Shown in pieces: positions 32,641 through 61,681 of a stretch of DNA of 64,000 nucleotides. Source of the DNA: a virus. Position 1 is the first letter of the stretch; each line of letters starts with the position of its first letter. Location of the stretch: positions 6,786-70,785 of IMG/VR virus record IMGVR_UViG_3300030012_004234; one strand, written 5' to 3'. Both the position numbers and the translations under genes were made by a program. The notes under the pieces were generated by a model that was given only the letters and a program-made list of their open reading frames with translations, ran no database searches and was not told the origin of the DNA.

Positions 32641-32651
32641 AATTTTAAGTT

Positions 32652-32702: not shown

Positions 32703-32710
32703 TTTACCAT

Positions 32711-32718
32711 TATAAATA
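32711..32718 (-). promoter_or_regulatory. Putative late-promoter motif TATTTATA
   Basis: Intergenic, upstream of the S74 fibre gene. Confidence 0.6.
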
Positions 32719-32778
32719 GCCATTATAATATAATAAAAAAAGCCTAATAAAACTAATTATCCGATAAAAAAAAGATTA

Positions 32779-40357: not shown

Positions 40358-40371
40358 TATATATCTTTTTT

Positions 40372-40379
40372 TATAAATA
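40372..40379 (-). promoter_or_regulatory. Putative late-promoter motif TATTTATA
   Basis: Immediately after a terminator and 14 nt before the ATG at 40357. Confidence 0.6.
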
Positions 40380-40382
40380 GTT

Positions 40383-40408
40383 AAAAAAAAAGAGGCCCGA
40401 AGGCCTCT
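40383..40408 (-). terminator. Rho-independent terminator with C(UUCG)G loop
   Basis: Minus strand AGAGGCC-TTCG-GGCCTCT followed by a T-run. Confidence 0.92.
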
Positions 40409-40419
40409 CTTAGTTATTC

Positions 40420-40656: not shown

Positions 40657-40733
40657 ATTTATTGGTTTTTAGTTAGACAAAAGATAACTGTCCGACTTCA
40701 ATTAAGAAAGGAATTCCATGTTAATAAATAGGC

Positions 40734-40760
40734 AAAAAAAAAGCGGCCCAGAAGGACCGC
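40734..40760 (-). terminator. Rho-independent terminator after major capsid gene
   Basis: Minus strand GCGGTCC-TTCT-GGGCCGC followed by T9. Confidence 0.9.
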
Positions 40761-40789
40761 CTTTCTCTTAAAAAATCTATAGATTAATC

Positions 40790-42388
40790 TTATAAATCAT
40801 TCATATCTGAAATAAAGACTTTTCCGTAGAATTCAGGTCTTATCATCTTCTTAGCATATCTAGTCATGATACCTTTTCTTGGAGTGAAGGTCTCAGGATC
40901 GTATACTAGAGGAGTCATAAGTAATGGTATATACGGTGAGTAAACCGCTCCAGTTTCTAAGAATTGTGAACCTCTATATCCCATAAGAATAATATTCTCA
41001 GTCATATAAGGGTTTTTGTAAACTCTGAATCTGTTAGCTAAGCTTCCTACTCTTTGTACACCAAAGTTGAAATCAGCCTGATCTCCGTCTGTATTAGCTG
41101 CATATCCTGGAATAGATTCTAGAATAGTAGCAACGTTTGGAGAACATACTAAGAAGTTCGCACCACCTCTAAGAGTTTTTTGGTGAATCTTATTAGATAC
41201 TTTTTGGATTTTAGTTCCTAAAGTTTGGAACCACTGTCCTTGAGTATTATAAAATCCTGGACTTAAAGTAGCCCAAGCTGTACCATTCCAAACTTTGTTT
41301 GAAACGACAGACCATCTCTCAGTAGTTACTGCGTCATTAATAAGCATGTCTAGGATCTCAAGATCAATCTCCATTGAGATATACTCACTCAATAAAGAAG
41401 TTAACTCAGCCTCAGCGTCGATGCTGTGGTATGCGTTAAGATCTTGAGCGAATTCTGGAGTCCATTGTGCTTTTAGTTTTCTAGTTTTAGCAACAATTGC
41501 TTCACTAGCTAATCTTACGTCGATAGACGGGATTTTAATAGATGTGTCAACAGCAGCAGTTGAATTTGCTTCGAAGTCACCTCTTGCGTTATCATCTGGT
41601 TGTACGTGATATAATACAGTAGAAGCAGGATTCTTAACTGTTAGGTTAGATGCAGTTACAACGAAAGTAACGTCATCACCAGATACAGTAGTTAATTCTG
41701 GGTTACTAGTAATATCTACAGAAGCAGAAAATAATCTAAATGCTCTAACTGCTTTATAATCAGGTCTTGCACCAGCGGCTTTTCCTGACATATCAGCTGT
41801 AACAGTTCTAAATTCTGATACGATTAGATCATCATTGTATCCAATTGAAGAAGAAACAGCAGATCCAGTAGTAATAGTTTCAGTGTGTGAAGCTGAATTT
41901 ACTGTATATCCGAATTGTCCAGCGCCATAAAGACCACCAGAAACTTCCTCATCAACAGACATTTTGTTAGAAGCAGAAGATACATTACCATACAAGTTAT
42001 CACCAGCTGTTCTTCCTCCTACAGAGTCTCCATATTTGAAGTCTAGGTAGAATACAAGTCCTGAAGGTAAATTCATTGGTTGTACAGAAACGAAATCTTG
42101 AGCAACGATTTGAGCAAATACTTTTCTAACTAAAGGTAGAGCTACACCAGCCCAGTTCTCACCAGCTCCAGCAGTGAAAGTAGCAGACCCTCCGTGACCG
42201 GAAGTGTTTGCTTCAGCAACGATTTGTTTAGCTTGGTTTTCTAAGATAACAGCCATGTTATTTTTGACTCTATTATCTTCGATACCTTCTAACAAACCAG
42301 ATGCTTCCCACTTAGAAGCTAATTTTTCAGAATCCTTTAGCATGCTCTTATAAGTATTTGAGCTCTCTAATAGGTTGTTAATTTCCAT
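40790..42388 (-). CDS. gp23: Major capsid protein (T4 gp23-like)
   Basis: VSVQPMNLPSGLVF, AKTRKLKAQWTPEFAQDLNAYHSIDAEAEL, YSPYIPL, FTPRKGIMTRYA; likely propeptide cleavage at IVAE59|A. Confidence 0.98.
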   Translation of the reverse strand: MEINNLLESSNTYKSMLKDSEKLASKWEASGLLEGIEDNRVKNNMAVILENQAKQIVAEANTSGHGGSATFTAGAGENWAGVALPLVRKVFAQIVAQDFVSVQPMNLPSGLVFYLDFKYGDSVGGRTAGDNLYGNVSSASNKMSVDEEVSGGLYGAGQFGYTVNSASHTETITTGSAVSSSIGYNDDLIVSEFRTVTADMSGKAAGARPDYKAVRAFRLFSASVDITSNPELTTVSGDDVTFVVTASNLTVKNPASTVLYHVQPDDNARGDFEANSTAAVDTSIKIPSIDVRLASEAIVAKTRKLKAQWTPEFAQDLNAYHSIDAEAELTSLLSEYISMEIDLEILDMLINDAVTTERWSVVSNKVWNGTAWATLSPGFYNTQGQWFQTLGTKIQKVSNKIHQKTLRGGANFLVCSPNVATILESIPGYAANTDGDQADFNFGVQRVGSLANRFRVYKNPYMTENIILMGYRGSQFLETGAVYSPYIPLLMTPLVYDPETFTPRKGIMTRYAKKMIRPEFYGKVFISDMNDL

Positions 42389-42413: not shown

Positions 42414-43619
42414 TTATTTAATAATACCGGCTAATTTTTGCATTCTTCTAACAGTTTCAGAAACTTCATTAATTACTTCTGGTTTACCAGATGCAGTAGT
42501 TCCTGTTGCTTTAGATGCCATGCCTAGTTTAGTCTTAGCTTCTTTGATATTGTTTTTAGTTTCTTTTTTACTAACAACATTATCTGAAACTGTTTCATAA
42601 ACTAATTTAACCTCTTTTACAGTTTCTGCTTTATCAAAAGCAGCTATAATGTTAACCTTTTGACTTTCAGAAAGGTCGTTTGATTTAAAGATTTTGTTAA
42701 CGTAAAGTAATTTTGAATTTAGAATATTTACTTCATTCAATTCACTTTTAAGAGTTTTGATAGTCTCTAAAGCTTGAGCTAGTTCTGATTTGCTTTCTTC
42801 TAATGCTTGTTCTTCAGCATCTCCGATAACACCTTCAGCTTCTTTCTCAACTTCATTGAAATCCTCTTCACCGTCTTTATCTTCGTTAATATTTACGTCT
42901 ACCTTCTGTCTGTGGTTATCAGCATTAGGTTTAGCATTGAACTCGTCTAATTCTTCTTCACTTACTGAAGATTCAAGTTCTCTAATTAACTCATCAAGAT
43001 CGATTTCTTCCTCGTCCTCACCAGGCATGTCCATTGGTTCTTCTACAGCATCAGGCTCATCACCCATACCTTCGATATCACCAGCATCCATATCCATAGC
43101 AGGCTCTTCGTCAGCGCCCATTTCTTGACTAATAATATCTCTAATTAAGTCTTTGAATTGATCTACACTTAAATCAGAAATATCCTCATCACCTTTAGGC
43201 TCGTCTTCAACCTCCGCTTCGTCCTCAGATTCGTCTGAGTCATCCTCCGCTTCGTTTTTTTCATCGTCAGCATGCATTGCTTCGTCTTTATTGTCTCCGT
43301 GAGCTTCCTCCATATCGTCGTCATGTTTAGCTTCTTCTACTTCTTCAAGAGATTCTTCCATGTTATCTTTCTCCTTCTTAGGAGCTTCTTCCATGTTGTC
43401 TTTCTCTTTCTTAGGAGCCTCTTCCATAGTTTCGTCGTCTTTTTTCTTAGGCGCTTCTTCTATTTTAGAATCTTCCATTTCTTGTAGTTTTGCAGCTAAC
43501 ATATCTTTTAAATGTGGAGTTAGAGTTTCTTCTAATGCTTCCTTAGCGTTAGCAATAGCAGCAGCTCTTACAGACTTAGCTTCAGCAATAGCTTGCTTAA
43601 ATAAATCTTTGTTTGCCAT
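42414..43619 (-). CDS. Prohead scaffolding/core protein (gp22 analogue)
   Basis: Highly acidic, coiled-coil, between protease and MCP; LNEVNILNSKLLY, FDKAETVKEVKL, RMQKLAGI; many [LMVI]xE sites. Confidence 0.85.
   Translation of the reverse strand: MANKDLFKQAIAEAKSVRAAAIANAKEALEETLTPHLKDMLAAKLQEMEDSKIEEAPKKKDDETMEEAPKKEKDNMEEAPKKEKDNMEESLEEVEEAKHDDDMEEAHGDNKDEAMHADDEKNEAEDDSDESEDEAEVEDEPKGDEDISDLSVDQFKDLIRDIISQEMGADEEPAMDMDAGDIEGMGDEPDAVEEPMDMPGEDEEEIDLDELIRELESSVSEEELDEFNAKPNADNHRQKVDVNINEDKDGEEDFNEVEKEAEGVIGDAEEQALEESKSELAQALETIKTLKSELNEVNILNSKLLYVNKIFKSNDLSESQKVNIIAAFDKAETVKEVKLVYETVSDNVVSKKETKNNIKEAKTKLGMASKATGTTASGKPEVINEVSETVRRMQKLAGIIK
43353..43460 (-). repeat. 33-36 bp tandem coding repeat (MEEAPKKEKDN) x3 in scaffold
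   Basis: ttcttccatgtt.tctttctc.ttcttaggagc at 43353 and 43386, with a degenerate third unit from 43419. Confidence 0.9.
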
Positions 43620-43644
43620 TTTTAAAAAAAAATTGTTGTGATTG

Positions 43645-43721
43645 TACGATTATTAAGAATCGTAATAGGGATTATAATTTGTTTGATACAATATATAAGA
43701 TTGTATATTCTTATATAAATA
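43645..43721 (-). promoter_or_regulatory. TATTTATA motif plus two 7-bp hairpins in the scaffold/MCP leader
   Basis: TATAAATA at 43714-43721; inverted repeats ATACAAT/ATTGTAT (43686-43706) and TACGATT/AATCGTA (43645-43664). Confidence 0.55.
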
Positions 43722-43741
43722 TATACTTTTTCTGGAAACCG

Positions 43742-43763
43742 TTATGCTCTTAATATATTGTTA
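43742..43763 (-). repeat. Relic duplicate of the prohead protease 3' end (19/22 nt identical to 44336..44357)
   Basis: AAC AAT ATA TTA AGA GCA TAA (NNILRA*) versus AAC GAT ATT TTG AGA GCA TAA (NDILRA*). Confidence 0.85.
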
Positions 43764-44336
43764 CTCGGGAATTCTCCAATCATCAATATCATCACCTCGT
43801 CTTTCGGTTTGAGGAAATAGATAATCTAAATAATTATCCCATTGATCATCATAATCTTCATATCCGCTTTCTTCTTGATAATAACTAGCTATCAATTTAC
43901 CGATATCAGAAGCAGGTTCATTAAAATAATCGGATACATCTTCAGCATCTTCCCAAGTTGCAGCTGCTTTCATAAAACTAACTATTTCTTCATCTTCAAA
44001 ATCATCAAACCCATTTTGTTGTTGCATTATGTCGTATACTTCACCAGCTAGATTTTCATCTTTAACTTCAGGAAATTTTTTCGCAAAATCATCAAAATCA
44101 AGATCACTTGAGTTTTCATCGTCGTCTCCATTCCGTGGACCAGAAAGGTACACCCATTTTCCGTCAGGAAGTTTTGCATGTTTTTGGCCATAGTTACTAT
44201 TATAAAATTCGGTTCCTTCTGGGAATTCGTCTTTGTTTATTTCACTCCATCGTTTAAATTTATCTTCTGAGATTAATTTGCTTTGAGTAGTAAGTTTGTT
44301 TTCTACTAAAAATTTTCTTAAATTAAAGTTTTTCAT
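43761..44336 (-). CDS. Acidic putative internal head (cargo) protein with MKNFNLRKFLVEN leader
   Basis: Leader shared with 44937..45245 and 53337..53618; D/E- and aromatic-rich body. Confidence 0.7.
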   Translation of the reverse strand: MKNFNLRKFLVENKLTTQSKLISEDKFKRWSEINKDEFPEGTEFYNSNYGQKHAKLPDGKWVYLSGPRNGDDDENSSDLDFDDFAKKFPEVKDENLAGEVYDIMQQQNGFDDFEDEEIVSFMKAAATWEDAEDVSDYFNEPASDIGKLIASYYQEESGYEDYDDQWDNYLDYLFPQTERRGDDIDDWRIPE

Positions 44337-44914
44337 TATGCTCTCAAAATATCGTTAATAATATTGTCTAAATTAAAATACTTAGATACTTTACCTTTAC
44401 CTTCATTTAATGATACCGGGTTCATAAATGCACCATGTGTAGATGGATTAGATACAAAGTCCCAGCATACTAGTTCAAAATCAGGCTGTACTTCTAAATG
44501 TCCTTCGTTTGTTTGTTGGACTGATCCGGTACCTCTAGATGATATACCAATAGTATGACCAGCTTTTATAATTTCTTTTACTATATTACCAGCAGGAGTA
44601 TTTAATAGCTCTACCTTACCCATTAAGTCATCACCATCCCAATATAGTTCTTTTACTATGTGAGAAGCGTTTTTTAACGAGACTACGGGCGTTTCAGGAT
44701 GATCTAACTCTCCAAAAGCATTTCCTTTTTTGACGAACTCTTTCACGTATCTTTCCGCTTCTCTCTTAAGAAGATCTTTACTGTATACTCTACCGTTTTG
44801 ATTCTCTGCTGAAGCTCTTTGCATTACTCCTTCAACTTCAAATACACCAGGTTTGGTTTTTGATTCCTTTAAAGTAGGTTTAAAAGGTGTTACGTCTACT
44901 AATAATTGTGCCAT
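44336..44914 (-). CDS. gp21: Prohead protease (T4 gp21-like)
   Basis: NQNGRVYS, GELDHP, SH, TPAG.I, GISSRGTGS, DFVSNPS..GA. Confidence 0.97.
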   Translation of the reverse strand: MAQLLVDVTPFKPTLKESKTKPGVFEVEGVMQRASAENQNGRVYSKDLLKREAERYVKEFVKKGNAFGELDHPETPVVSLKNASHIVKELYWDGDDLMGKVELLNTPAGNIVKEIIKAGHTIGISSRGTGSVQQTNEGHLEVQPDFELVCWDFVSNPSTHGAFMNPVSLNEGKGKVSKYFNLDNIINDILRA

Positions 44915-44936
44915 ATTATTTTTCTTCTTTTTAGTT

Positions 44937-45245
44937 TTAGTATCTCCAGTATTTACTTAAACCGTATCTTTCTAATTTATCATTACCATGTTCAACATCA
45001 TCTGGTAGAATATAATCATCAATTTCCTCAGCAGATGTATTATTATCAAATATAAAAACATCAGCATTACTTATAATAAGGTCTTGTTCTCTATCAGATA
45101 GTAACTCATCGTAAGCTTCGTAATCAGTCATATCATCATCCTGGTAAACGATTGTAAAAGGTTTATCACTTATTTTTTTAGGCGTAAATTCTTCTTTTAA
45201 TAAGCGATTTTCTGCCAAATATTTTCTTAGATTAAAATTTTTCAT
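44937..45245 (-). CDS. Acidic putative internal head (cargo) protein with MKNFNLRKYLAEN leader
   Basis: Shared leader; about a quarter of residues are D/E by manual count. Confidence 0.7.
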   Translation of the reverse strand: MKNFNLRKYLAENRLLKEEFTPKKISDKPFTIVYQDDDMTDYEAYDELLSDREQDLIISNADVFIFDNNTSAEEIDDYILPDDVEHGNDKLERYGLSKYWRY

Positions 45246-45251
45246 TTTATT

Positions 45252-47591
45252 TTATTTGTTCTTTTTTTCGTTAATACCAAAAATATTCTTCTTAGGACCT
45301 TCTTGGGCAATAGGTAATGATCTAACTGGTTTAATGTTAGGTAAATTTAATCCTCCAGTAAAGGCATTTTTCATAACAGGTCTTAAATCTTTTTTAAATG
45401 CGCTTTCGATAGCTGGAGCTAAAAATCCTCCTACTTTTAATCCTTCATCATTTTTTATTTCTCCTAACTTATCGTAAACTTTCTGTATCTTTTCTCTAGT
45501 TCTTTCGTAAAATGATTCTATATCATTTACTACATTTTGAAGATCGATAACGGATTGTTTCATTCCTGCAAAGCTTTCGTAGTCATCTGCTATTTTAGCT
45601 AGTTGATTAGTAGCTGCTTCTTCAATCATATCATCTTTTAAACTTTTTTTGATAATACCTTTGATAGCTTCTTTAAGTTGTACAGATTGTTTTTCTGTGA
45701 TTCTATATTCTTCAACTTCTGCTTCTGGTTCTACTACTTCATCATCTGCTAAATCTTTTAAGAACTCTAATGCTCTTTTTAATTTAGGATTAGCAAATAA
45801 AGCAGGTTGTTCTTTATCGTCTACTTGGTCTACAAACTTTAAAATAGCTTGAGCCATAGTTTTAGGATTTTTAACGTTAGTATTTATTCTAGTTAAAGTA
45901 GCTGAAGGAATTTCTTCTTCATCAACTCTATCGTAATTAGCATCTACAAATAGATCAAAATGAAATACAGGATCTTTTCCGAAATCTCCATCCATGATAT
46001 CATTTTTATGTGTTTTGATATAATCCTTAATAAGAGAATCTATACCGGGTATCTCTCCATACTTTTCTTTTATCTTACCAATATGAGATGCTAATACTTC
46101 TTTTAATACTTTTCTTGTATCAGCAGCACCGCCTGTATAGTTGCTAGGAGAATCAGTTTTAACTTTACCTTTTCTATCGATATTCATTACTTCATCTTTA
46201 CCCATAGCTTTTTTTATAGCTTTATCTTTTGCAGCCATATAATCATCAGAATCTATATCTCCGTCTCCGTCATGATCTTTACCTTTTCCTTCAGAAGCCA
46301 TATAGATAGGTTCGATAGCTTTTGTAATTTCTTGTGCAATTGCTAGTTCTTCATTCTTATCTTCTTCTTGATATTGTTCTTCTAAGTTTTCTGAAATAGA
46401 ATAAATAGCATCTAGCTCAGATGTACCGTCTTGTTCATCCATCAAGGCCTCAGCTTCTGTAAATAATTCGTTAAATACTCCACGTACTACATCTTCATCA
46501 TGACTAGATGATAATTTACTTTCTAAGAATTTTTTAATATCTGGAAATGTTGCTACGTATTTTTGTTTAAAAGGTATACTTTCTTCTTCGTTCTTTTTTC
46601 TTTTGTGACCGTGATGTGAAGATGTAATAACTTCTAATTCGTTTATAGGTATATTTTTTACTGTCTTACTTCCTTCTTTAAAAAATACATCGTAATGAGT
46701 TACTGTTCCATCTTCTAATAAAGTATGCTCTCCTTCTAAACAAATACCATGTCCATATTTTTCATGTAATACATGATTAGCACAATCGTGCTCAATTTCT
46801 TTCTCTTCGTCTTTTTTATCAATAGTTTCCTTAATATAATTAACTAGATTCTTTTTAAACATTTTTAATGCTTTGTTTCCTTCTTCTTCATCTTCATGTT
46901 TAAAAGCATCAATTGCAGTATTGAGGTCTTGATTAGGTGTGTGATAATTTACATCTTCTAATGAGTTATAAATCTTCATCATATGCTCTACCTCTTCTCC
47001 TGATGCTCCTTTACCAGGATCTACTTCCGGAATAGCCATTGCAGCTCTAATCATTCCTCCGTAATCAAAGTTTTCAGAATATTTATCTCCTGGTTGATAT
47101 GCTTCTTTTAAAGTAGCTTTTTTCATTCCGTTGAAAGTATCAACGTTATTTTTCTTACCTACTGGGACCATCTGATCGTTTTTATTTACTTTATCAGATT
47201 CGTTACCAACTAAGTTTATATAATGAGAAGGATTTTTTTCTAAGTTGTCTTTTGCTTTCTTTTCTGCTTTAAAAAAGTCGTCAGCATTAAGAGTCATATG
47301 AGGCATTAATCCAGCTGCTTGCAACTCAATTCTTATTCCTCTATCTAAAGCATCTAATGAATAAGTTAAGGCAGGTCTTTCATCGTATGATTTTGTTTTA
47401 GTAGGTTTTTTTTCAGCCTTAGCTTCAAAAACTAATCCTCTGTTTTTAAGAATTTGTACTGAATCGTCAAATCCATTGAATTGAGATATAAAATCAGGGA
47501 ACTGTTGTCTCATCTGTCTAACAAATTCTCCTTTAGCCATCTTGCCTTCTTGGACGGCTCTAAATTTTTCAGTTGCTGTTTGTTGTCTCAT
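45252..47591 (-). CDS. Modular prohead-core/internal polyprotein-like protein
   Basis: Unrelated segments joined at LKE|A, IKE|T, KNE|E, ASE|G, KDE|V, LKE|V, VDE|E; includes His-rich and DxDxDG modules; TATTTATA at 47595-47602. Confidence 0.65.
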   Translation of the reverse strand: MRQQTATEKFRAVQEGKMAKGEFVRQMRQQFPDFISQFNGFDDSVQILKNRGLVFEAKAEKKPTKTKSYDERPALTYSLDALDRGIRIELQAAGLMPHMTLNADDFFKAEKKAKDNLEKNPSHYINLVGNESDKVNKNDQMVPVGKKNNVDTFNGMKKATLKEAYQPGDKYSENFDYGGMIRAAMAIPEVDPGKGASGEEVEHMMKIYNSLEDVNYHTPNQDLNTAIDAFKHEDEEEGNKALKMFKKNLVNYIKETIDKKDEEKEIEHDCANHVLHEKYGHGICLEGEHTLLEDGTVTHYDVFFKEGSKTVKNIPINELEVITSSHHGHKRKKNEEESIPFKQKYVATFPDIKKFLESKLSSSHDEDVVRGVFNELFTEAEALMDEQDGTSELDAIYSISENLEEQYQEEDKNEELAIAQEITKAIEPIYMASEGKGKDHDGDGDIDSDDYMAAKDKAIKKAMGKDEVMNIDRKGKVKTDSPSNYTGGAADTRKVLKEVLASHIGKIKEKYGEIPGIDSLIKDYIKTHKNDIMDGDFGKDPVFHFDLFVDANYDRVDEEEIPSATLTRINTNVKNPKTMAQAILKFVDQVDDKEQPALFANPKLKRALEFLKDLADDEVVEPEAEVEEYRITEKQSVQLKEAIKGIIKKSLKDDMIEEAATNQLAKIADDYESFAGMKQSVIDLQNVVNDIESFYERTREKIQKVYDKLGEIKNDEGLKVGGFLAPAIESAFKKDLRPVMKNAFTGGLNLPNIKPVRSLPIAQEGPKKNIFGINEKKNK

Positions 47592-47593
47592 GT

Positions 47594-47824
47594 CTATAAA
47601 TAGTCAAATGCTTTAGTATGATATGGCCTATCTGGACGGCTTATTTTTTTGAAACCTAGACTCTTTGAAACTTTAAGAGCTTTTTTTGCTTTACCAAAAG
47701 CGCCCGGTGTTGCATAATTTTCTCCAGCACCAGGAGTAAAAGAAGCAGATCCGCCAGATACGTTTGCTTCTTGCAATTCAGATAGTACTTCTCTTACTAA
47801 TTGAATTACTTGAGACCTTGTCAT
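47594..47824 (-). CDS. Small head-associated protein carrying a copy of the MCP mature N-terminus motif
   Basis: LQE|ANVSGGSASFTPGAGENYA versus MCP VAE|ANTSGHGGSATFTAGAGENWA. Confidence 0.7.
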   Translation of the reverse strand: MTRSQVIQLVREVLSELQEANVSGGSASFTPGAGENYATPGAFGKAKKALKVSKSLGFKKISRPDRPYHTKAFDYL

Positions 47825-48675
47825 AAGTTTTTTAATTCATTAACAAGATCGTAATATTGCATAAGATTAACTAAATGAGTATCATTTACTTTTTCAGTTT
47901 TAGCTAAAGGAGTAATATTTTTTACTACTTCCTGTAGTTTAATCTTAACAACATCATCTTTTACTTTTGCAATTAATTTATTAACTTCTTTTAAAATATT
48001 ATCAAATTCTTTATTTACTAATTTATAAAGTCTACGATTAGAGTTTACTGATGTAATAAATTCTTTAAGAATATTTTTTTGTTCAGGTAATAAATCTTTA
48101 TACTTATCATTAAATTTTTCTAATAAAATTTTAAATGTAAGCATTTTTAAATCTTTGTCGTATTTACTGTAGTCTTCTATTAAACTGTCTTTAACAGCAT
48201 CTTTTTCCTGAGGATTAGAAGTTAGATGTTCTAAAATAGTAAACTTATTATCAACTAAAAATTGAGGGTCTACTAAATTACTATTATTCTGAGCTTCTAA
48301 TAAGCAGTACAGAGCAGCTAGAGGTTTATAAGCTCTAACTTCCATTCCAAAAAACTCTTCTAAATTATAATGTTTTTTAATTTCAGATATAAGCTCATAT
48401 TTTTGAGCTTTTAAAGTTTTTTGATCTAATTTTCTTGAAACTTCAGTAATAGTGGATAAAACAGCTTCTGCTTTACTCTGTATAAGTTTATTATTTTTAA
48501 TAAGGAACTCATATAGTTTATACTCTTTTGCTAAAGTACTTTTATTACTATAGAATTTTTTAAGTATTTCTATAGCTTTTGAGTCTTTATTGTCTAGGGT
48601 ATCTGCTGCTATTTGTTTAACTAACAGTTCAAATATGAGACCAGTATTACGATACTTCGAATGCTTTATCTTCAT
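47821..48675 (-). CDS. Helical head-morphogenesis protein of unknown function, downstream of portal
   Basis: 284 aa, all-helical, MKIKHSKYRNTGLIFELL; TATTTATA at 48692-48699. Confidence 0.6.
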   Translation of the reverse strand: MKIKHSKYRNTGLIFELLVKQIAADTLDNKDSKAIEILKKFYSNKSTLAKEYKLYEFLIKNNKLIQSKAEAVLSTITEVSRKLDQKTLKAQKYELISEIKKHYNLEEFFGMEVRAYKPLAALYCLLEAQNNSNLVDPQFLVDNKFTILEHLTSNPQEKDAVKDSLIEDYSKYDKDLKMLTFKILLEKFNDKYKDLLPEQKNILKEFITSVNSNRRLYKLVNKEFDNILKEVNKLIAKVKDDVVKIKLQEVVKNITPLAKTEKVNDTHLVNLMQYYDLVNELKNL

Positions 48676-48703
48676 TATATACGTTTACTATTATAAATAT
48701 GTA

Positions 48704-50599
48704 TTATTTACCTAAATCCTTGATATTGTCTTCTTTTAGTAACTCGCTATCGTCATCTTTAGATTTTTTGAAAACAATATCTTTCAACATATCTTTATTT
48801 TGTAGATAAACTTTCTCTGTAGAGTTGGTTTCCATAACATTATCATTGTCGGAAGGGTAGCCTCCTTTCATGCCTTGCTGACCTAAAGGATCTCTTCCTC
48901 CCATAGGGTTATCATTAGTGCCATATATAGAAGCTTTTTCTCTTGGTCTTCCTCCTTCAGGACCTGGCTGTCCCCACTCAGGTGTATCTTCATACCCTGT
49001 AGGAACTTCTCCTGGACCTGCTCCTTTTGGTGTAGAAGTAGATCTTCTACCGTACATTGAAGCAAGATCATGAGGTGTACCGTAAGTAGTACCTGATTTA
49101 GCTGGGTCATTACCTTCTCCTTCTATCTGTCCTATTCTAAATAGTCTTTTAGAATCTTCTCTAACTAAATCTCTCATTTCATTATACTTATCTTCTGACA
49201 TATCAAATATGTTTTCGTATATATAATCAGATGAGAATAATTTAGTATCTTTCATTTGATTAGCAAGATCAACTTTTTCTTTTAAGAGAGCTACTTTTTC
49301 TTGTTCAAATATAATAGACGGAGTAGTAAGTTTAATTTCAAAGTTAGTTAAACTTTCACCGGTAAATCCTTGAGAATATAAGTGAACTAATGCTATTTTA
49401 GTTAACTCTGATTCCATAATTCGTTGAACTCTTTCAACTGTTCTAGCGAATCTTATATCTTCAGCAGCTAAAGTTGCTTTTCCTTGTAAATCTCCTTCAT
49501 ATCCGAAGTATGCTTTTGGAATCTTAAGTGCTGCAAACATTTTTTGTTGCAAATATTGTACGTCAGTTACACCATCGTAATCTAATCCTTTAGTAGTTTC
49601 AATTCTTGTAGATGTATCTCCTCCTCTAACAGGCAGATAATAATCCTCCATCATATTCTGTAGATTAAATTTAAGGTTATATTGTCCTTGATCATCTACA
49701 TAAGGAGTTTTTTTCATTTGGTTGATAGTTTTTTGCATAAACTGCTCAACTTCATTAGGAGGTACGTTTCCTACATTAATATAGAACATTCTTTTTTCAG
49801 GAGATCTCATTATTCTATGAATTAACATAGCATCTTCCATCAAAGTAACTTGTTTAAATATTTTTCTTGCAGGCTCTAAATAAGATCTACCGTAAGGTAG
49901 GTAATGAGTATCTGAGATTAATCTAAAATGAGCTATTTCGTAATTATCAAATTCAACTATTTTATCGTTCTTTTTTCTTTTAGGTAAATATTGAGGATTT
50001 TGTGATGATGCTAAACCATCTGGATCTAATTGAAAAATAACTTTAGCAGGATTATCTGGATCTTCTCCTTCTCTCCTTACCATATGGTATACGGTATAAG
50101 GTAAAACGTTATAAACTCCAAATTTTTCTGAGATTTCTAGTTTTAAAAAGAAATCACCGTACTTACACATATTTCTAGTCCATGACCATAAGTTAAATTC
50201 TATATTTAAGACATCATAAAATAAGTTATAAAGTACTCTTTGTATATTTTCGTCCGAAGATTTTATAGCTAATATTTCATTTTGGTCATTTTTTACTGTA
50301 GCTTCGTCAGAAAGTATGTCAAGTGCAGAAGCAATTAATGGATCTGTATCCATAGCTTCATAATCTGAGTATAGTTGAATCCTAAGTGTCTGATAATTTA
50401 AATTAGGATTAAATATATTTTTATTATTATAGATATATAATCTAGTAAATCTATCTATTAAGGAATTCGTCTGGTATCTACCTGTTCGTTGTATAGTATT
50501 GACATCAGCTATTTTGAGCTCATTGCCACCTACATTCCTTACTACAACATCTGAGGAAAATAGTCTTCGTAGTCTACCAAAAAGTGAAGTATCTGCCAT
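48704..50599 (-). CDS. gp20: Portal protein (T4 gp20-like)
   Basis: YEAMD.DP.IASALDI..DEA, MEDAMLIHRIMRSPEKRMFYINVGN, MMEDYYLP.RGG...IET, ALKIPK; TATTTATA at 50617-50624. Confidence 0.97.
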   Translation of the reverse strand: MADTSLFGRLRRLFSSDVVVRNVGGNELKIADVNTIQRTGRYQTNSLIDRFTRLYIYNNKNIFNPNLNYQTLRIQLYSDYEAMDTDPLIASALDILSDEATVKNDQNEILAIKSSDENIQRVLYNLFYDVLNIEFNLWSWTRNMCKYGDFFLKLEISEKFGVYNVLPYTVYHMVRREGEDPDNPAKVIFQLDPDGLASSQNPQYLPKRKKNDKIVEFDNYEIAHFRLISDTHYLPYGRSYLEPARKIFKQVTLMEDAMLIHRIMRSPEKRMFYINVGNVPPNEVEQFMQKTINQMKKTPYVDDQGQYNLKFNLQNMMEDYYLPVRGGDTSTRIETTKGLDYDGVTDVQYLQQKMFAALKIPKAYFGYEGDLQGKATLAAEDIRFARTVERVQRIMESELTKIALVHLYSQGFTGESLTNFEIKLTTPSIIFEQEKVALLKEKVDLANQMKDTKLFSSDYIYENIFDMSEDKYNEMRDLVREDSKRLFRIGQIEGEGNDPAKSGTTYGTPHDLASMYGRRSTSTPKGAGPGEVPTGYEDTPEWGQPGPEGGRPREKASIYGTNDNPMGGRDPLGQQGMKGGYPSDNDNVMETNSTEKVYLQNKDMLKDIVFKKSKDDDSELLKEDNIKDLGK

Positions 50600-50626
50600 T
50601 AAACGTTTAATTTATATATAAATAGT

Positions 50627-52201
50627 CTATTTTAGTAACCAAGTAATATCTTCAGTACCACCTGGCGTCTTTATAAGATAAGGATTTTCTTTCTTATTTC
50701 CAACTGTTTTTATAACAGCTTGGTTTCTAGCATTCAAATTGCTAAAAGAAGATAATTGAGCTCTAGCTAAATCCATGCCCTGTTGCCTCAATCTTAAAGC
50801 AGTATCTCTAACATATAGAGCTGATGCGCAAGACATAATTAAATCGTCATTATATCTGGTTTGAGCTTGAGCTTTTCCGTTTTTCCATATGAAAACACGC
50901 ATTTCTTGTAATAATCTTTTAGATTGAAACGTAACAGACTTTTCTCTAACGTATTCAATCATTTTTGCTATAACTAAAGGTCGTGTTCTCATAGACATAG
51001 TAAAGCCTGGTACTAGTTTATCTCTTTCATACTTATGCATATAAGATTCAACAGTATCTAATTGATTAGTTGGGCTGTAATATAAGTTTCTATACTCTCT
51101 TTCTAAGATCTGTTCTATAGTAGCCCATCCAATATTAGCATTTTCTACTACTAATAAAGCATCATTATACTCAGATGCTATAGCTACGAGTACATTACCG
51201 AAATCTTTAGGTGCTATTTTACCTTTATATTCAGCTACTTGAACACAATTATCTATATCGAATACATGAAATGCAGAGTAGTCAGTAGAATCTCCTCTAG
51301 CTACGTCTGCACACACCATATATGATTTACTGTAATCAGCAGATTCCCAAATCCATAAATTACCATCAACTCCTCTTCTTTCCATAGGTTCTTTTTCATA
51401 AGTTTGTTCATAGTAAGTCATATCTTCAGGTTCAAATACCGTATCTCCAGAAGCAAGAAAGTCACAATCACATTCTTGACCTGCCATTCTTGGACCTAAA
51501 TCTGCATCTTGTTGTTCTCTCCACTTTTGATCTCTCTCAGGATGAACTGTCCATGGTAATCTTATAGGAATAAAACTATTTTCTTTTACTACTGCTTTTT
51601 CCCATGTAAGATGAAACCAGTTACCTACACCATTAGGAGTAGATAAAGCCATACATTGACCACCTGTAGCTAATGTTTGTTGTGCTGCAGTAAACGTTTC
51701 ATCAATATTATCTATAAACGCCGCCTCATCAATTAGAAGTAATGATACTGCTTCTGATCTTGCTGCATCAGTATTAGAAGACTTAGCTGCTATTCTTGAT
51801 CCATTTTTTAATCTTAATGATAATTTATTTTTTTCTACTGAGGGTAGTTTCAACCATTTAGGAAGCTGGTCATACATAAAGATAACTTTAGTAACTAAGT
51901 TTCTAGCTGTAGCTTGAGTAGTTGCTAATGCTAATACGTTTTTATCTTTATGAAATATCATTAACCAGAGAGAATAAGCTGCTGATAATGTAGATATACC
52001 TAGCTGTCTTGACTTTAAAGTAATGACATATTGATTATCTTTGAATACATGAAGTATTTTTTCTTGAAAAGGGTATAAGTTAAAAAGAATCCTACCTCTA
52101 GTAGGGTGCTGAATATAGCAGTACTTTCTCATAAAGTACGCCGGATCTTTAGCGCACTTAAGATACTCTTGTGCGATTATTTTTTTTATATCTTGTGCCA
52201 T
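50627..52201 (-). CDS. gp17: Large terminase subunit (T4 gp17-like)
   Basis: LKSRQLGIST (Walker A), LLIDEAAF (Walker B), STPNG, QE.DC.F, DVARG, NDDLIM; no intein evident. Confidence 0.97.
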   Translation of the reverse strand: MAQDIKKIIAQEYLKCAKDPAYFMRKYCYIQHPTRGRILFNLYPFQEKILHVFKDNQYVITLKSRQLGISTLSAAYSLWLMIFHKDKNVLALATTQATARNLVTKVIFMYDQLPKWLKLPSVEKNKLSLRLKNGSRIAAKSSNTDAARSEAVSLLLIDEAAFIDNIDETFTAAQQTLATGGQCMALSTPNGVGNWFHLTWEKAVVKENSFIPIRLPWTVHPERDQKWREQQDADLGPRMAGQECDCDFLASGDTVFEPEDMTYYEQTYEKEPMERRGVDGNLWIWESADYSKSYMVCADVARGDSTDYSAFHVFDIDNCVQVAEYKGKIAPKDFGNVLVAIASEYNDALLVVENANIGWATIEQILEREYRNLYYSPTNQLDTVESYMHKYERDKLVPGFTMSMRTRPLVIAKMIEYVREKSVTFQSKRLLQEMRVFIWKNGKAQAQTRYNDDLIMSCASALYVRDTALRLRQQGMDLARAQLSSFSNLNARNQAVIKTVGNKKENPYLIKTPGGTEDITWLLK

Positions 52202-52203
52202 AA

Positions 52204-53337
52204 CTATTTAATTTTTTCAAACTTTCCATCTTTCAACAAATATATATTAGAAGAACGGTAAGCTACAGCTTTAGTCATTGCAATAGCTTCATTATTTTGA
52301 ATACCGAACATTGTTCTATCTCCTCTATAAGCTGCTGTGAGGTAAGGAGTATACTCTCCTTTAGGTATATTTGGTGGAAGAAGTACATGTTCTCCAGATA
52401 ATTCATATTTATTATCTCCTATCTTTTCAAACTCTACTTCACCTTGAATGACTATATTTACATTTTCTTTACTATTAGGTTTCCCATATTCAGGTCCAAA
52501 GATCAAAAGTTTAATAAGTTCTTTATCTTTAATTGGAGCAATAAATCTTGTTTTATTGGGAAGTCCTTCTAGGTTATTATCAACCAGAAATTTTTTGAGG
52601 CCGTTATTAAAAGCTACAACTTCTGGATGATCAGCATAAGCGGTGTATCCGCTCCATCTTATAAAGTCAGATGCAGCTGGTCCTTTACTTCCTGCTTTTT
52701 TATGAGAAATAAATACTACAGGGTTACCTTTTTCGTCTAATAAATTAAAATCAGATTTAGGCATTCCTGATTGAGTTTCTGCAGAACCTATTTTGTATGC
52801 TTTTCCGTTGACTACTACGTCAATAGTACCTCCTTCAACATCTATGAGGCTGTTTAATTTTTTTTTAAGAATGTATAGATTCTCATCTTCTACTACTGTT
52901 CCTGATCCTGCTCCTTTACCTCCAAATTCTGGTGTTTTTAAAAGATCATTTAGTGAAACAGAATTGTTTTCAGAATCTATAAAGAAAGGAAAATTATTAA
53001 CTCTACTGCCTGCTATTTTTCTAATACCGTCTAAATCTCTATTTTTAAATAGATCGGCGTATTCTTCTGAGGCAAATTTTAATTTTACTTCACTACCATC
53101 AGTGTTGTAGAAAGAATCATTCGACTGTACCATATCATAAAACTTAACCAATCTAGGAGCCCCTCTTTTAATAAGTTCAGAAAATTTAAGTACTCTATAT
53201 CCCTTATCTAAAACCTCTATTAGGTCTATTCCAAACATAGACTCAAATAACCTTAAATCATCTTCGTTATTAAGGTCAGGATATCCTTTTTTGGTTCTAT
53301 ATGACCATTCTAATATTACTCTATCTATAAGATTCAT
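52204..53337 (-). CDS. PD-(D/E)xK restriction-endonuclease-like protein with N-terminal leader
   Basis: E.E...PKSDF..(10)..FISHK...F.RWSG; leader MNLIDRVILE.WSYR..KGYPD. Confidence 0.6.
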   Translation of the reverse strand: MNLIDRVILEWSYRTKKGYPDLNNEDDLRLFESMFGIDLIEVLDKGYRVLKFSELIKRGAPRLVKFYDMVQSNDSFYNTDGSEVKLKFASEEYADLFKNRDLDGIRKIAGSRVNNFPFFIDSENNSVSLNDLLKTPEFGGKGAGSGTVVEDENLYILKKKLNSLIDVEGGTIDVVVNGKAYKIGSAETQSGMPKSDFNLLDEKGNPVVFISHKKAGSKGPAASDFIRWSGYTAYADHPEVVAFNNGLKKFLVDNNLEGLPNKTRFIAPIKDKELIKLLIFGPEYGKPNSKENVNIVIQGEVEFEKIGDNKYELSGEHVLLPPNIPKGEYTPYLTAAYRGDRTMFGIQNNEAIAMTKAVAYRSSNIYLLKDGKFEKIK

Positions 53338-53618
53338 TAGTCTCTTTTTAGATCTTGTTCTGGCATATCGATATCATCAGGATTTTTTTCAAAGCTTGTA
53401 TTAGTTAAAGTATATTCAACTTTTCTTACATTTTTACCATCTTTGTCTCTGACATATACCTCTACTCCTGCAATTGCTCCTAATTTAATTAGATCATCAA
53501 GTTGATCTCCTGATATTCCTATACCGGTAGGGGCCATTTCTTCATCTAATTTAGATTCATCCATAGTGGCCACTTTATTTTCAATTAAAAATTTTCTAAG
53601 ATCAAAATTATTTTTCAT
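53337..53618 (-). CDS. Small putative internal head protein with MKNNFDLRKFLIEN leader
   Basis: Shared leader followed by MDE/LDE sites. Confidence 0.7.
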   Translation of the reverse strand: MKNNFDLRKFLIENKVATMDESKLDEEMAPTGIGISGDQLDDLIKLGAIAGVEVYVRDKDGKNVRKVEYTLTNTSFEKNPDDIDMPEQDLKRD

Positions 53619-53628
53619 ATCACTATTT

Positions 53629-54771
53629 TTATGCTTCAGGTTCTTCAGCTGGTTCTTCGAAATCTATAGGCTCATCAGTTAAATCTGCTCCTCCTTCTTC
53701 TCCTCCTTCAGGATCAGGTGCATCTAAATCAGTTCCTGCTCCAGTTCCAGCATCAGCTCCAGGAAAATCTCCTCCTCCACCAGTATCAGCAGAATCTACG
53801 TCTGTTCCTGCTTCTCCTGTTTCTCCGCCAGATGCTAATGGTGCTTGTCTATATAATACTTCTAATTTATCTAATGCTTGTTGGTATTCTGAAATTTTAT
53901 TTAAATAGTATCTTTTACCCATTATTTGAGCTTGAAAACCATCTCCTAACCATTTAAGTATATAATCTTGACCGTTTTTCAAATTTACTCTGAATGATGT
54001 AGGTCTAGGAGAAACCCAATCAATACTTTCAACAAATTCTTTGAAATCTTCAGTTTGAAGTTTAACAATAGCATTCTTTAATGTAGGAAATTTATTAAGC
54101 ATTATATCAGTTGAATCTTCTAATACTGTTTCTTTAGATGCTTTTGGATCTGGTTGTTCTTCAGGTTCAGGTTCTTGTTCGTTTACTAAGTCTGATAGGT
54201 TTTCATTAAGTTCGTATCTTAAATAAGCTCCTACAGTATTATTAAGTTTACTACCTTCATTCAGTACTTCTTCCATTGCTCTTCTTATCTTAAATCTTTC
54301 GTACTGTTCAGGGTGATTTTTTCTAAGGTAAGATTGCATCTTTCTAAAGTTAGTCTTTATTAATTCAAAAAGATCTTTAGCTTCTTGATCCGACTTAACA
54401 GAATCTCTACCCATCAAAGTTTTAATATCTTTCAAAATTTTAGCATACCTATTGTAAAGGTTTTCAAAAGACGGCAGTCTTATTATTGCATGTTTATATG
54501 AATTAGTCTCTTTATTATAAGCTGTGGTATAATAATAAGTCTCATATTCTTTATCTACATAATCTCTAGTAGGATCTCCAGGAGCAGGTCTTCCTTTATA
54601 TTCTACATTTTTTTTCAAAGATGTTTTTATATTATTAGGAATATCTTTCCAAAAAATTACTCTTTTGTCCTCTAGTTCATCATCAAGATCAAAACTTTCT
54701 CTATCATCTTGTTCTATTAGAGCCTCTGTGTAAGCTTCTAAAATTATATTTTTAAGATCCTTTTTTTTCAT
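53629..54771 (-). CDS. Two-domain putative head protein with leader and acidic Gly-rich tail
   Basis: MKKKDLKNIILE|A; LNE|G, LNE|N, VNE|Q linker between domains; low-complexity acidic C-terminus. Confidence 0.6.
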   Translation of the reverse strand: MKKKDLKNIILEAYTEALIEQDDRESFDLDDELEDKRVIFWKDIPNNIKTSLKKNVEYKGRPAPGDPTRDYVDKEYETYYYTTAYNKETNSYKHAIIRLPSFENLYNRYAKILKDIKTLMGRDSVKSDQEAKDLFELIKTNFRKMQSYLRKNHPEQYERFKIRRAMEEVLNEGSKLNNTVGAYLRYELNENLSDLVNEQEPEPEEQPDPKASKETVLEDSTDIMLNKFPTLKNAIVKLQTEDFKEFVESIDWVSPRPTSFRVNLKNGQDYILKWLGDGFQAQIMGKRYYLNKISEYQQALDKLEVLYRQAPLASGGETGEAGTDVDSADTGGGGDFPGADAGTGAGTDLDAPDPEGGEEGGADLTDEPIDFEEPAEEPEA

Positions 54772-57700
54772 TTTTTCCTTCTAATGCTAATTTATCAATA
54801 ATAGGTTGTTTTTCTTCTGAATCTAAATAATGGAATGCTTTAGATAAGTAGTCTTTAGACAATATTAATTTACTTTGCCACCAATTAGGAAAATCAACTT
54901 CTCCATCAAATTGATCATACTTAGCTAATTTTTTATATAACTTAGCTGCAAAAGTTGCTGCTTCATATGCTGTGCTTTTAAGCATACCGGGTTCATCATC
55001 TTGATGACCTATATCAGTATCTTCATCAATATTCTTTCTTCTGGGATACTGAGTAGACATATCTTTTAAGTCTCCTATGACTGATTGCATTGCTCTAGCC
55101 ATTCTTGGGAAATCATCGGCAGGTATTTGGATATACTCTCTACCGTAAGTTATCTGCACCATTAATCCTCTTTTACCTCCAAAGAATCTTTTTATTTGTA
55201 GACCACCTTTATCGTATAGTTCAGTACCTTCTTTAAGTTCTTTCTCTTCCATCGGATAATCTTCATCATCTAAATCATCATACCCATAATCTTCCAATCT
55301 ATCTACTTCACTACCTAATGTAGTATCATATCTATTATTTGAGTAAACCATATTGAATACGCCATAGCCGTCCATTCTTGATAATTCATTAGGAAAGTTC
55401 TGTCTAACTATATCTCTAGCTTCTTCTCCAAGCTCTTCTACTCGTCCAACAATATCTTTTAATCTATCTAAAGCTTCATCTTGATCTGCATTTTCTTGAA
55501 CGTTAGGATCTAATTCTTGACCTCTACCTACATTTGCTACAGCTTTTTCTAAAGCAGCTTCTACTTGTTTTTTCTTTTTAGTGAGTGATTTTAAGTGATC
55601 CATTACTGAATGTTTACCTGGTTCAGAACCTCCTTGGTACATATGGTCACCGCCTTTTTCTTTTCTTAGAGCATTAAGCTCTTTCATTTTATCAACTATT
55701 AATTTATGAACTTTTTGTAATTCAGATACTGAGTATTTTCCTTTTGGTAGTTCTTTATCTTCAATTGCTTCGTTGCGGTCATCTCCAAATCCTCTTAACA
55801 TATCTTTTAAAAGTTCAGCTGCTTTTTTGATCATACCTACATCTTGTCCTACTTCACCGGATTGTAGCATTTTTAAAATATTTAAAAGCTTTATCTTTTC
55901 TTCTTTTCCTATATAATATAAGTCACCCTCTTGTAGTGTAAGGGTATCCTCTTCTGATGATCTAATTACAGCTTTAAGTATTTGTTTTAATTTACTAAAT
56001 TCTTCACCAGTTACTGGGTCTTTATCATACCCTAATCTTGCTACAAAGCTTTTTATAAAATCTATATCACCGTCATCTAAGTAAACTAAATCGCCTTCTT
56101 TAACTAATTTATCGAGATACTTAGCCTGTCCTGCATGACCTTTAGAAGATTTTTTTAAGGACTTACTCATATCTTTTAACTTCTTTTTTTCAGCTTTAGA
56201 TAATTCAGCTGATGCTTCTTTCATAGATGATTTCATCCATGTAGCTAGTATTTGTCTAGCTGTATTTCTATCCAAACCGAATTCAGCTCGTAAATAAGGA
56301 ACAGCACCAAACATGTTAGTTACACCTGAATCCCTTAATTTGTTTAAATATTCGAAGTAATATTCTGGATTATCTATTTCTTCTTCGTTATATTGAGTTA
56401 CTGGAGGTACTTTAGATCTTTGTTTATCTTTTGGATCACTTAATCTAGCTCCTTTTTCTCTAGCAGCTTTTGTTAATCTACCTTTAACCAAGTTACCTGA
56501 AGCGGTAAAATAATGACCGGAAGGTGCTCCTTTAGTTTCATTATTTTTTTTAATATTAATAAGTTTTTGGATTTTACTTATTCGATCTTCTTTAACTTCT
56601 ACCTCATTAAATTTAATAGGTATAAAAATTTCAAATGCTCTTATATCTGTACCCTTCTCACCTTTACCTTGACCTACATCTAATCCTTCCTGTTTCATTA
56701 AGAAGTCTTTTACAAATTCTGTTACATATTTAAGAGCAACTTTAGGTTTAGCAGTTCGATTTAAACCGGTTGGTCCATCAATAGCTACGTATAACGTTGT
56801 ACTATCTTCTTTGAAAGCTCCTTTTTGACCAGTAGGGTATATCCTGAATCCTATATTATCTCGAATCTTAGATAGGTCAGACTTGGCAAAAAAGTTATCG
56901 ATTGCTTTTAATATATTATTTACTCCGGCTTTCTGTCTAGGTGAATATTTTTCAAACTCTGTTCCAATTCTATCCATAAAAGCATATCTGTTAAATAAAA
57001 TAGTAGATTTAGGTTCATAAATTTTATCTGCTTTATTTTTGCCAAAACCAAAAAATTCTTTTACTCCCTGACTAGCATCTTTAATCTTTTCTATATGACC
57101 GTCTAAATAATCAACTCTGTCAACTGGTAGACCCATGCTTGAAACTTGGTCTTTAATAGTAGCAGATACGTATTGAGCATCATTTAAAATTTTTGTAGCA
57201 TAAGAAGAATCTTTTAACGCTCTTATTTCCATTTTAAATAATACATCATGTAATTTAGCAAGTCTTATAACTTCTTCTTTATTTAGTTCTCCATAATTAC
57301 CGTCTACAACATCTTGTATAAACGATTTAGCACCAGGACAAATTTTATAGTATTTAGTTTGATAACCATAAACGTTTACGTTATACTTATCAGCAGCATA
57401 TTCTCCTTCTTTTATATTTTTTTTCCTTCTTTCTTTAGCAATCATTGCTTGTATCTTTTTGATTTTGTCTCTTTCAGGATGCTTTTCTAGTCTTTCAGCT
57501 TCTTTAGCATCTTGAAATTCTTTATCAGACATAGTTTCATTTTTAAATCTATCTCCTCTGTTAGCTGGGTTGCCCATAATATTGTTTAGTACGCTTTTTA
57601 ATTCTCTATTTATAACGTCTTGATGTAGTAAAGGCTTTCCATCAGCTTTGATTCCAACCGGAGCTAATTTTTTATCGAAAACTCCTCCTCCATATTCAAA

Positions 57701-58198: not shown

Positions 58199-58234
58199 AG
58201 TTTCTTAGTTTATATACGTATATAAATAAATAGA

Positions 58235-61658: not shown

Positions 61659-61681
61659 GAATTTCTTTAATATAAATATCT

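Follow-up and report, generated by a model that had tools for sequence, protein, structure and literature searches.

In a 64,000-nucleotide (nt) stretch of viral DNA (positions 6,786 to 70,785 of the IMG/VR record IMGVR_UViG_3300030012_004234; hereafter the window), three otherwise unrelated small genes, L191, L102 and L93, encode proteins that start with nearly the same peptide, M-K-N-(N)-F-[ND]-L-R-K-[FY]-L-x-E-N. This leader is a real, selected and portable peptide module of one clade of T4-like phages of Bacteroidota: it stands at the N-terminus of unrelated passenger proteins, is under selection at the protein level, and co-occurs with a prohead protease of the gp21 family, whose cut motif is depleted in the passenger bodies. 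Judging from these sequence patterns, we believe that the leader is probably a portable propeptide of the kind known as the capsid targeting sequence (CTS) in phage T4, one that would target proteins to the prohead core and be cut off after L-x-E.

The source record comprises 70,785 bases (CheckV completeness 43%) and implies an uncultured T4-like myophage with a genome of about 160 kb; every gene in the window lies on the minus strand. The nearest cultured relative is Flavobacterium phage vB_FspM_immuto (160 kb; immuto in the following), with a capsid protein identity of 69.8%.

In a six-frame scan of the window, the pattern LRK[FYLIVMW][LIVM].E matches only L191, L102 and L93, each time at the N-terminus (Table 1). 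A leader profile likewise matches the whole record at three places and no others, and no further listed minus-strand open reading frame (ORF) of the record begins with the leader. The bodies that follow show no mutual similarity by BLASTP (best E 0.079, in a database of the three sequences), and Pfam and PHROGs give no match for any of the three proteins. The leaders end in FLVE, YLAE and FLIE, respectively, and are devoid of a hydrophobic stretch; L-x-E occurs at residues 12 and 24 in L191, 12 and 18 in L102, and 13 and 26 in L93. Over all instances the consensus is M-x-(N)-F-[DN]-L-[KR]-K-F-L-x-E-N-K-L-T-x-N-S-[KR]-x-L-x-E, often bipartite, with a first half ending in L-x-E and a second half that often ends in another, about 12 residues on; the core measures 12-13 amino acids (aa), the long form 24-26 aa. 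Conservation is highest at the L-x-E end, and L/I-x-E is present in 143 of 143 N-terminal instances, which is partly a product of how the search was constructed. A first-pass annotation of this DNA had described a near-identical leader of 13-14 aa on three unrelated small genes. ORF starts, six-frame scan, profile and BLASTP of the bodies bear out the sharing; the length is right for the core, the conserved unit being often longer, with a second part N-K-L-T-x-N-S-x-x-L-x-E.

Two of the three genes flank the protease gene: L102 ends 22 nt upstream of its start, and the start of L191 overlaps its stop. L93 is placed two genes upstream of the gene for the large terminase; of the two head-module genes that border it, one is 10 nt away and the other overlaps it by 1 nt. 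In L191, the leader is followed by a variable linker and then a conserved acidic C-terminal domain, and an alignment of its homologs (n=92) likewise consists of leader, indel-rich region and conserved acidic domain. Within this family the leader form varies while the passenger body stays conserved. In an AlphaFold2 model of L191 of moderate quality (mean predicted local distance difference test score, pLDDT, 63.8), residues 1-25 have pLDDT below 50 and are detached from the body, with a short helix at 6-13; a Foldseek search of this model against the PDB returned no fold at E<=0.001. For L93 we found 10 homologs, and its slot in immuto holds two leader genes. In a relative that is 96% complete (G010), five small genes in tandem begin with the short form seen in L102 (..YLAENKLLNE).

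Outside the record, the leader is widespread. Relatives of the protease number 541 in IMG/VR, and the best 80 of these 541 (identity 85-99%) were retained as protease-anchored loci. A profile made from the leaders of the window matched at 47 N-termini, the next match being at E 1.9; of these, 42 fall in 33 of the 80 protease-anchored loci, three are those of the window and two belong to immuto. A back-translated DNA pattern occurs in at least 118 IMG/VR stretches, and 81 of the 93 pattern matches in the first 80 of these at least 118 loci lie 1-4 residues after a Met. With a stricter profile on 203 loci (2.08 Mb) we obtained 182 matches, namely 165 N-terminal (within 8 aa of the start Met), 11 at the extreme C-terminus and 6 internal, the last comprising three apparent non-ATG starts and three fusions. 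Finally, a 34-residue N-terminal profile run against 1.84 billion cluster representatives (50%-identity clusters) gave 1,627 matches at E<=0.001 and 136 at <=1e-10; in 145 of the best 150 of the 1,627, from which all further details of this library are taken, the first leader copy is N-terminal. The bodies of 129 unique complete leader proteins fall into 61 BLASTP clusters, so that the catalogue of passengers proposed in the first-pass annotation shows the leader on a wide range of unrelated proteins. Pfam searches with 10 passenger representatives gave one HD domain above the cut-off and one weak match below it. The isoelectric point (pI) of the bodies has a median of 5.05, with values below 6 in 44 and above 8 in 14 of the 61 cluster representatives.

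A tblastn search of GenBank phages with the 25-aa leader returned the four immuto records only, the leader strings do not occur in the literature searched, and inspection by eye did not find the leader in the head region of the more distant Microcystis phage Mel-JY01. One annotated immuto gene belongs here: immuto26A_194 (MW353175/L083, 4736-5737) carries the GenBank name 'cob(I)alamin adenosyltransferase', which looks unfounded; it really belongs to a leader-tagged ORFan family, and Pfam finds nothing in a relative (L180:3029-4024). The leader DNA pattern was also run against 596 Gb of prokaryote genomes as a measure of chance. It matched 50 times, with four true-looking N-terminal leaders, three of them on one 104-kb contig of a metagenome-assembled genome, and we reject chance as an explanation.

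The leader keeps company with head genes. Among the matches listed, head-module homologs lie near it in 77 of the 118 loci found with the DNA pattern. From the remaining 41, 18 were taken to a search for the protease family, which covered 17 records, each of them a fragment, with CheckV completeness of 6-36% plus one at 96%, implying genomes of about 160 kb. The 96%-complete record, G010, encodes an S77 protease. Three leader genes are present in the partial record of the window, four in immuto and six in G010, five of which form the tandem array. Those of immuto (host Flavobacterium sp. LMO8) are immuto26A_194, immuto26A_195 and two more near 1.8 kb and 103.8 kb.

Is the peptide or the nucleic acid under selection? 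In the window, the leaders differ by synonymous codons (AAC/AAT, TTA/CTA/CTT, TTA/TTG), and over the N-terminal instances both TCN and AGY codons stand for Ser16, and six different codons for Leu12. Conservation extends to residues 12-21, which the search pattern did not cover. Since the conserved residues are written with varied synonymous codons, in the case of Ser from two codon families, we conclude that selection acts on the peptide, as had been claimed on first inspection. The leader is A/T-rich, begins ATG AAA AAT and sits at the 5' end of most carrier genes, as would suit a start-proximal codon or structure signal that serves translation or RNA rather than the peptide. This is highly improbable and we reject it: next to the codon usage just described, the DNA upstream of the three leader starts does not align, only three genes of the record carry the leader, and longer proteins contain whole copies, in frame, both internally and terminally.

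Common descent could also leave a shared N-terminus, the three genes being fast-diverging paralogs and the leader a relic rather than a portable module. Tandem arrays of small leader genes do suggest local duplication, and the bodies are short, acidic and fast-evolving. We nonetheless regard a relic as improbable, since the passengers form 61 clusters without BLAST links, including an HD-domain protein, since differing leader forms are found on one conserved body, and since fusions keep the whole leader with its Met; moreover, near-invariance amid the loss of everything else would need selection for a function of its own.

The protease gene between L102 and L191 encodes a member of Peptidase_S77, with further matches to phrog_207 (1.5e-52), to the crystallised chain 5jbl_A in the PDB (6.1e-21) and, by BLASTP, to T4 gp21 (4.8e-28). 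Its LDHP and ISSRG blocks align with LNHP and VSSRG of T4; 5jbl_A reads LNAP and VASRG at these His and Ser blocks, presumably as inactivating substitutions. Passengers that share the prohead with this protease, and have to survive there, are expected to avoid (L/I)-x-E. We therefore compared counts of [LI]xE in the bodies with the expectation from shuffled sequences. The 61 cluster-representative bodies (8,707 residues) contain 77 motifs against 111.4 expected (z-score -3.75; none of 1000 shuffles as low), and a replicate set of 67 other single-leader library representatives contains 103 against 131.7 (z-score -2.81; 2 of 1000 as low). The effect is specific: in the 61 representatives [LI]xD, Ex[LI], [FYW]xE and [AG]xE occur at expectation and [LI]xK is enriched, and the replicate gives the same picture for [LI]xD, Ex[LI], [AG]xE and [LI]xK, with [LI]xQ enriched too. 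Neither the non-head genes of the window (those at 1-30800, which served as the control set; 128 against 106.9) nor its tail genes (23 against 19.8) are depleted, and its scaffold-like protein is enriched (14 against 8.7). In T4, the bodies of the internal proteins (IPs) contain no [LI]xE where 2.76 are expected (218 of 5000 shuffles as low), and the scaffold protein gp22 is enriched (16 against 5.75).

These counts bear on the possibility that the leader has no targeting role and is just a pro-sequence which the protease strips from accessory proteins of the core or scaffold, comparable to T4 gp67 and gp68; such proteins would reach the core by other contacts and leave or be discarded at maturation. 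L102 and L191 do lie by the protease gene where T4 has gp67 and gp68, they are acidic like gp67 (pI 4.05) and gp22, and the prime conservation of L-x-E would fit. However, the discarded core proteins of T4 are rich in cut sites, as gp22 shows, whereas the leader bodies avoid them; a fixed 12-25 aa peptide on at least 61 unrelated passengers, many encoded far from the head module, would be left unexplained; and similarity to gp67 or gp68 is lacking. We consider a mere pro-sequence unlikely.

Some proteins carry more than one leader. Two or three copies are present in 63 of the best 150 library matches, and an internal copy usually retains its Met, which points to fusion of two neighbouring tagged genes. 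Fusions of two or three leader-tagged proteins in one frame, polyprotein-like in appearance, were observed in P0103-P0170 and at loci L110, L173 and L200. In a family encoded just upstream of terminase in immuto-like phages, the protein starts with a leader and ends with another (..ALQEG-FDLRKFLAENRK-stop). [LI]xE lies within 12 aa upstream of 54 of 63 internal or C-terminal copies, compared with 14% of control windows, most of the 63 copies being from one protein family and the 54 hence non-independent events. The arrangement would suit excision of the module by cuts at both of its ends, and it recalls the processing of T4 Alt at two ends.

On the analogy with T4, what we infer for the leader proteins is docking, cleavage, retention in the head and injection. 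The three leader genes would be made together with the head proteins; L191 and L102 lie in a tight protease block and L93 in a block ending with the terminase gene. The short amphipathic leader (core L-x-x-F-L-x-E) would then dock its protein onto the assembling scaffold core in the prohead, with the scaffold-like protein as proposed docking partner. The gp21-type protease would remove the leader by cutting after the Glu of (L/I)-x-E, that is, after the first L-x-E at residue 12 or 13 and, in the long form, also after the second, about 12 residues on. The passenger body, purged of cut motifs, would survive, stay in the head, and most likely enter the host along with the DNA.

Several observations weigh against targeting and cleavage as just outlined. 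The three window bodies taken alone contain one [LI]xE against 3.58 expected, which is not significant (as low in 494 of 5000 shuffles). That F, L, K, F and E are invariant in the leader is in part a consequence of the search pattern. The proposed cut is followed by N or G, compared with A at the capsid and scaffold sites, and strong conservation continues beyond the first Glu (N-K-L-T-x-N-S), so that the exact cut site is uncertain. The family with an extreme C-terminal copy (11 loci) and the internal copies show that the peptide is not tied to the N-terminus. Two complete or nearly complete relatives, G001 and G002, encode a protease 87-88% identical and carry no leader, which must thus be dispensable or replaceable. 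Neither a virion proteome of immuto or of any other leader-bearing phage nor data on fusions with the tag were found in the literature searched. As to the docking partner, the scaffold-like protein has no significant BLASTP similarity to T4 gp22 (E 2.4), and its assignment follows from position, composition and character only.

Some of these points would suit an uncleaved docking peptide for a host factor, a chaperone, a membrane or export machine, or another phage assembly. The conservation beyond the first Glu and the C-terminal copies would find a place there, as would the great diversity of passengers, one with an HD domain and some encoded in tandem arrays away from head genes. We give this a minor share of the probability: the leader is limited to one clade with a gp21-type protease and concentrated beside protease and terminase genes, docking elsewhere would give the bodies no reason to avoid [LI]xE specifically, and the leader lacks a hydrophobic stretch. 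A CTS-like propeptide remains the reading that we prefer.

The leader genes and the head-module genes around them are collected in Table 1.

Table 1. Leader genes and neighbouring head-module genes, in window coordinates.
Feature	Position	Strand	Product	Basis or N-terminal features
L191	43761..44336	(-)	191 aa, pI 4.16	N-terminus MKNFNLRKFLVENK; leader residues 1-24 (nt 44336-44265)
L102	44937..45245	(-)	102 aa, pI 4.33	N-terminus MKNFNLRKYLAENR; short leader form MKNFNLRKYLAENRLLKE (nt 45245-45192)
L93	53337..53618	(-)	93 aa, pI 4.57	N-terminus MKNNFDLRKFLIENK; leader 1-13, up to 26 (nt 53618-53541)
Prohead maturation protease, gp21 family	44336..44914	(-)		Pfam Peptidase_S77 7.3e-33, 114 bits (cut-off 27)
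Acidic scaffold-like core protein	42414..43619	(-)	401 aa, pI 4.24	position, composition, N-terminus
Major capsid protein, gp23 type	40790..42388	(-)		Pfam Gp23 3.3e-81
Portal protein, gp20 type	48704..50599	(-)		Pfam Portal_T4 6.3e-72
Large terminase subunit	50627..52201	(-)		annotated immuto homolog and position
Acidic protein with class B N-terminal motif	53629..54771	(-)	380 aa	MKKKDLKNIILE/AY; relatives MHKLEKLILEAY

The scaffold-like gene sits between the protease and capsid genes. Its product starts with MANKDLFKQAIAE/A (a slash marks a known or proposed cut), reading ..AIAE/A, compared with MLKEQLIAE/A in T4 gp22, and both of its ends are strongly conserved among 30 orthologs. One ortholog is immuto26A_204 (MW353175/L083, 12731-13972; MSNKDLLKQAIAE...RWQKLAGIIK), for which the GenBank name 'DNA polymerase phi-like protein' looks unfounded. 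In the window capsid protein, IVAE/A aligns (MAFFT) with the maturation cut FLTE65/A of T4 gp23.

A second N-terminal motif, here class B, reads M-(x)-K-L-x-x-[IL]-[IL]-L-E and occurs in the window at 53629-54771 (-) and 38406-38708 (-). Examples are MKKKDLKNIILE and MHKLEKLILE and, in relatives, MKLxDIILES on the gene just downstream of the protease gene. In the 80 protease loci (L003-L082), 58 of 1,069 ORFs carry it at the N-terminus, and it is found internally once in 304,945 residues; these ORFs form five BLAST clusters, three of them large. The slot after the protease gene in the same 80 loci is taken by class B in 36, by the leader in 13 and by another gene (mostly that for the scaffold) in 28, and is cut off in three. 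The class B spacing, hydrophobic-x-x-hydrophobic-[IL]-x-E, is the same as that of the T4 tag.

Two further observations concern large proteins of the head module. A 779-aa protein (45252-47591, minus strand), encoded upstream of the L102 gene, contains ..EHDCA.HV.HE.YG.G.C.EG.HTL....THYDVFF.. at residues ~258-338 (phrog_22379, 1.9e-16). In other relatives this segment is the body of a leader-tagged protein of ~130-210 aa after the protease (cluster C3, L074:10615-11247); it can thus be free-standing with a tag or lie inside a large untagged head-module protein. A 1148-aa protein (54752-58198, minus strand) includes a short stretch 70-88% identical to the region encoding the 779-aa homolog elsewhere (for example, the loci numbered L102, L126 and L144), and the two large proteins may share a domain.

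On the coding strand, the motif [AC]TATTTATA[AT] recurs shortly upstream of the scaffold-like, 284-aa, portal, 1148-aa and further genes, in the stretches 43620-43760, 48676-48703, 50600-50626, 58199-58234, 61659-61681, 40358-40419, 1885-2001 and 32641-32778. It does not directly precede any of the three leader genes, which sit within the blocks, and is possibly the late promoter of the clade. The sequence TATAAATA, the consensus of late promoters in T4, shows no enrichment in the window, with 28 matches where 24.8 are expected, and gives no argument for late promoters. G+C-rich hairpins followed by T-runs are found after the capsid gene (40657-40789) and at 40358-40419. The region 1-30800 consists of about 35 closely packed minus-strand genes with reduced G+C content (minimum 0.238 at 8001-10000).

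What would a packaging tag in these phages mean? Capsid targeting tags are experimentally established for T4 and inferred for T4 relatives and giant phages, according to sections of PMC9026906 and PMC5694885. If the leader works as in T4, the CTS principle would also hold for a clade of Bacteroidota phages, marine and freshwater, that is abundant and for the most part uncultured. A simple sequence rule would then list proteins that are packed in the virion and probably injected, with about 1,600 candidate families, and a second, unrelated tag would be at hand for loading foreign proteins into capsids. Depletion of the cut motif in cargo is a general computational test, which could be used in other phages to predict proteins that share the prohead with the protease. 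More tentatively, we speculate that the leader might mark a very large, fast-turning-over arsenal of proteins packed in the heads of marine Bacteroidota T4-like phages and injected with the DNA. With more than 1,600 50%-identity clusters, mostly of acidic ORFans, many members could serve counter-defence, either as DNA-mimic-like proteins or as enzymes. In that case, injected effectors could be traced in metagenomes by the sequence of the tag, and natural fusions of tagged proteins would be polyproteins that are split within the prohead.

Among known systems, the cargo-loading peptides of encapsulins are short, terminal at either end, and sufficient to load diverse cargo into an HK97-fold shell. 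They involve no protease step and no scaffold core, the peptide binding the shell directly; their sequences are unrelated to the leader, which is no member of that family.

The giant phages phiKZ, 201phi2-1 and SPN3US have a gp21-related protease that cuts after Glu, and sections of PMC5694885 describe propeptides thought to target ejection proteins into the prohead, propeptides with several cut sites, and the paralogs gp53 and gp54 with an identical 15-aa N-terminus. These systems differ from the leader in their A/S/G-x-E motifs and in propeptides that are mostly longer than 100 aa and are no portable short tag (PMC5694885).

T4 gp67 and gp68 are small proteins encoded beside the protease gene, between portal and scaffold; both have an early N-terminal (L/I)-x-E (MEGLIE and MLLIPE), and gp67 is, like the window passengers, acidic. 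Both are cut into fragments, as is gp22, according to parts of PMC5694885. The passenger bodies described here differ in avoiding the cut motif and show no sequence similarity to either (BLASTP best E 6.7-7.8).

The closest parallel is the T4 CTS itself, the work of Mullaney and Black 1996 as described in parts of PMC9026906 and PMC5694885. In these accounts, IPI, IPII, IPIII and Alt carry N-terminal propeptides of 10-19 aa that target the scaffold core and that gp21 cuts after Glu; the tags sit on unrelated passengers, Alt is processed at both termini, and in the IPIII tag targeting depends on residues 4 and 7 and processing on residues 8 and 10 (PMC9026906, PMC5694885). In the T4 genome (NC_000866), the sites read MKTYQEFIAE/A in IPII and IPIII, ..ITE19 in IPI, MLKEQLIAE/A in gp22, ..FLTE65/A in gp23 and ..LLRE10 in gp24. 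Like these tags, the leader is a short propeptide-like peptide at the extreme N-terminus, common to unrelated proteins and with the gp21 cut motif (L/I)-x-E at its end. Numbered backwards from the Glu, Y(P7)..F(P4) I(P3) x E(P1) of T4 corresponds to L(P7)..F(P4) L(P3) x E(P1) of the leader, and the four positions critical in T4 appear to be the best conserved ones here. In both cases a gp21-family protease is encoded, several tagged genes occur per genome, partly scattered, and the cut motif is absent from the IP bodies of T4 and depleted from the leader passengers; for the copies at both ends, Alt offers a precedent.

The differences are equally plain, and some of them add to the points against a CTS-like role. 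There is no sequence homology between MKTYQEFIAE and the leader, only the spacing hydrophobic-x-x-F-[IL]-x-E being common to both; the leader proteins match no T4 IP, Alt, gp67 or gp68 (BLASTP best E 0.61); and the IPs are basic (pI 8.9-9.5), whereas the leader passengers are mostly acidic (pI 4.2-4.6 in the window). In addition, the leader is often bipartite, at about 25 aa, is followed by N or G where T4 has A, shows natural two-tag fusions and a family tagged at both ends, and belongs to a clade of Bacteroidota phages. The likeness between the F-L-x-E end and the ..EFIAE of T4, drawn in the first-pass annotation, therefore holds in part: a head of gp21, gp23 and gp20 type, the (L/I)-x-E end, the hydrophobic offsets and the avoidance of the motif speak for it, while the two peptides are not homologous, the leader is longer and in two parts, one family has internal or C-terminal copies, and the cargo is of mostly opposite charge character. 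The principle of tagging is thus the one known from T4; new are the sequence of the tag, its two-part build, its natural fusions, its acidic cargo and the size of the cargo set.

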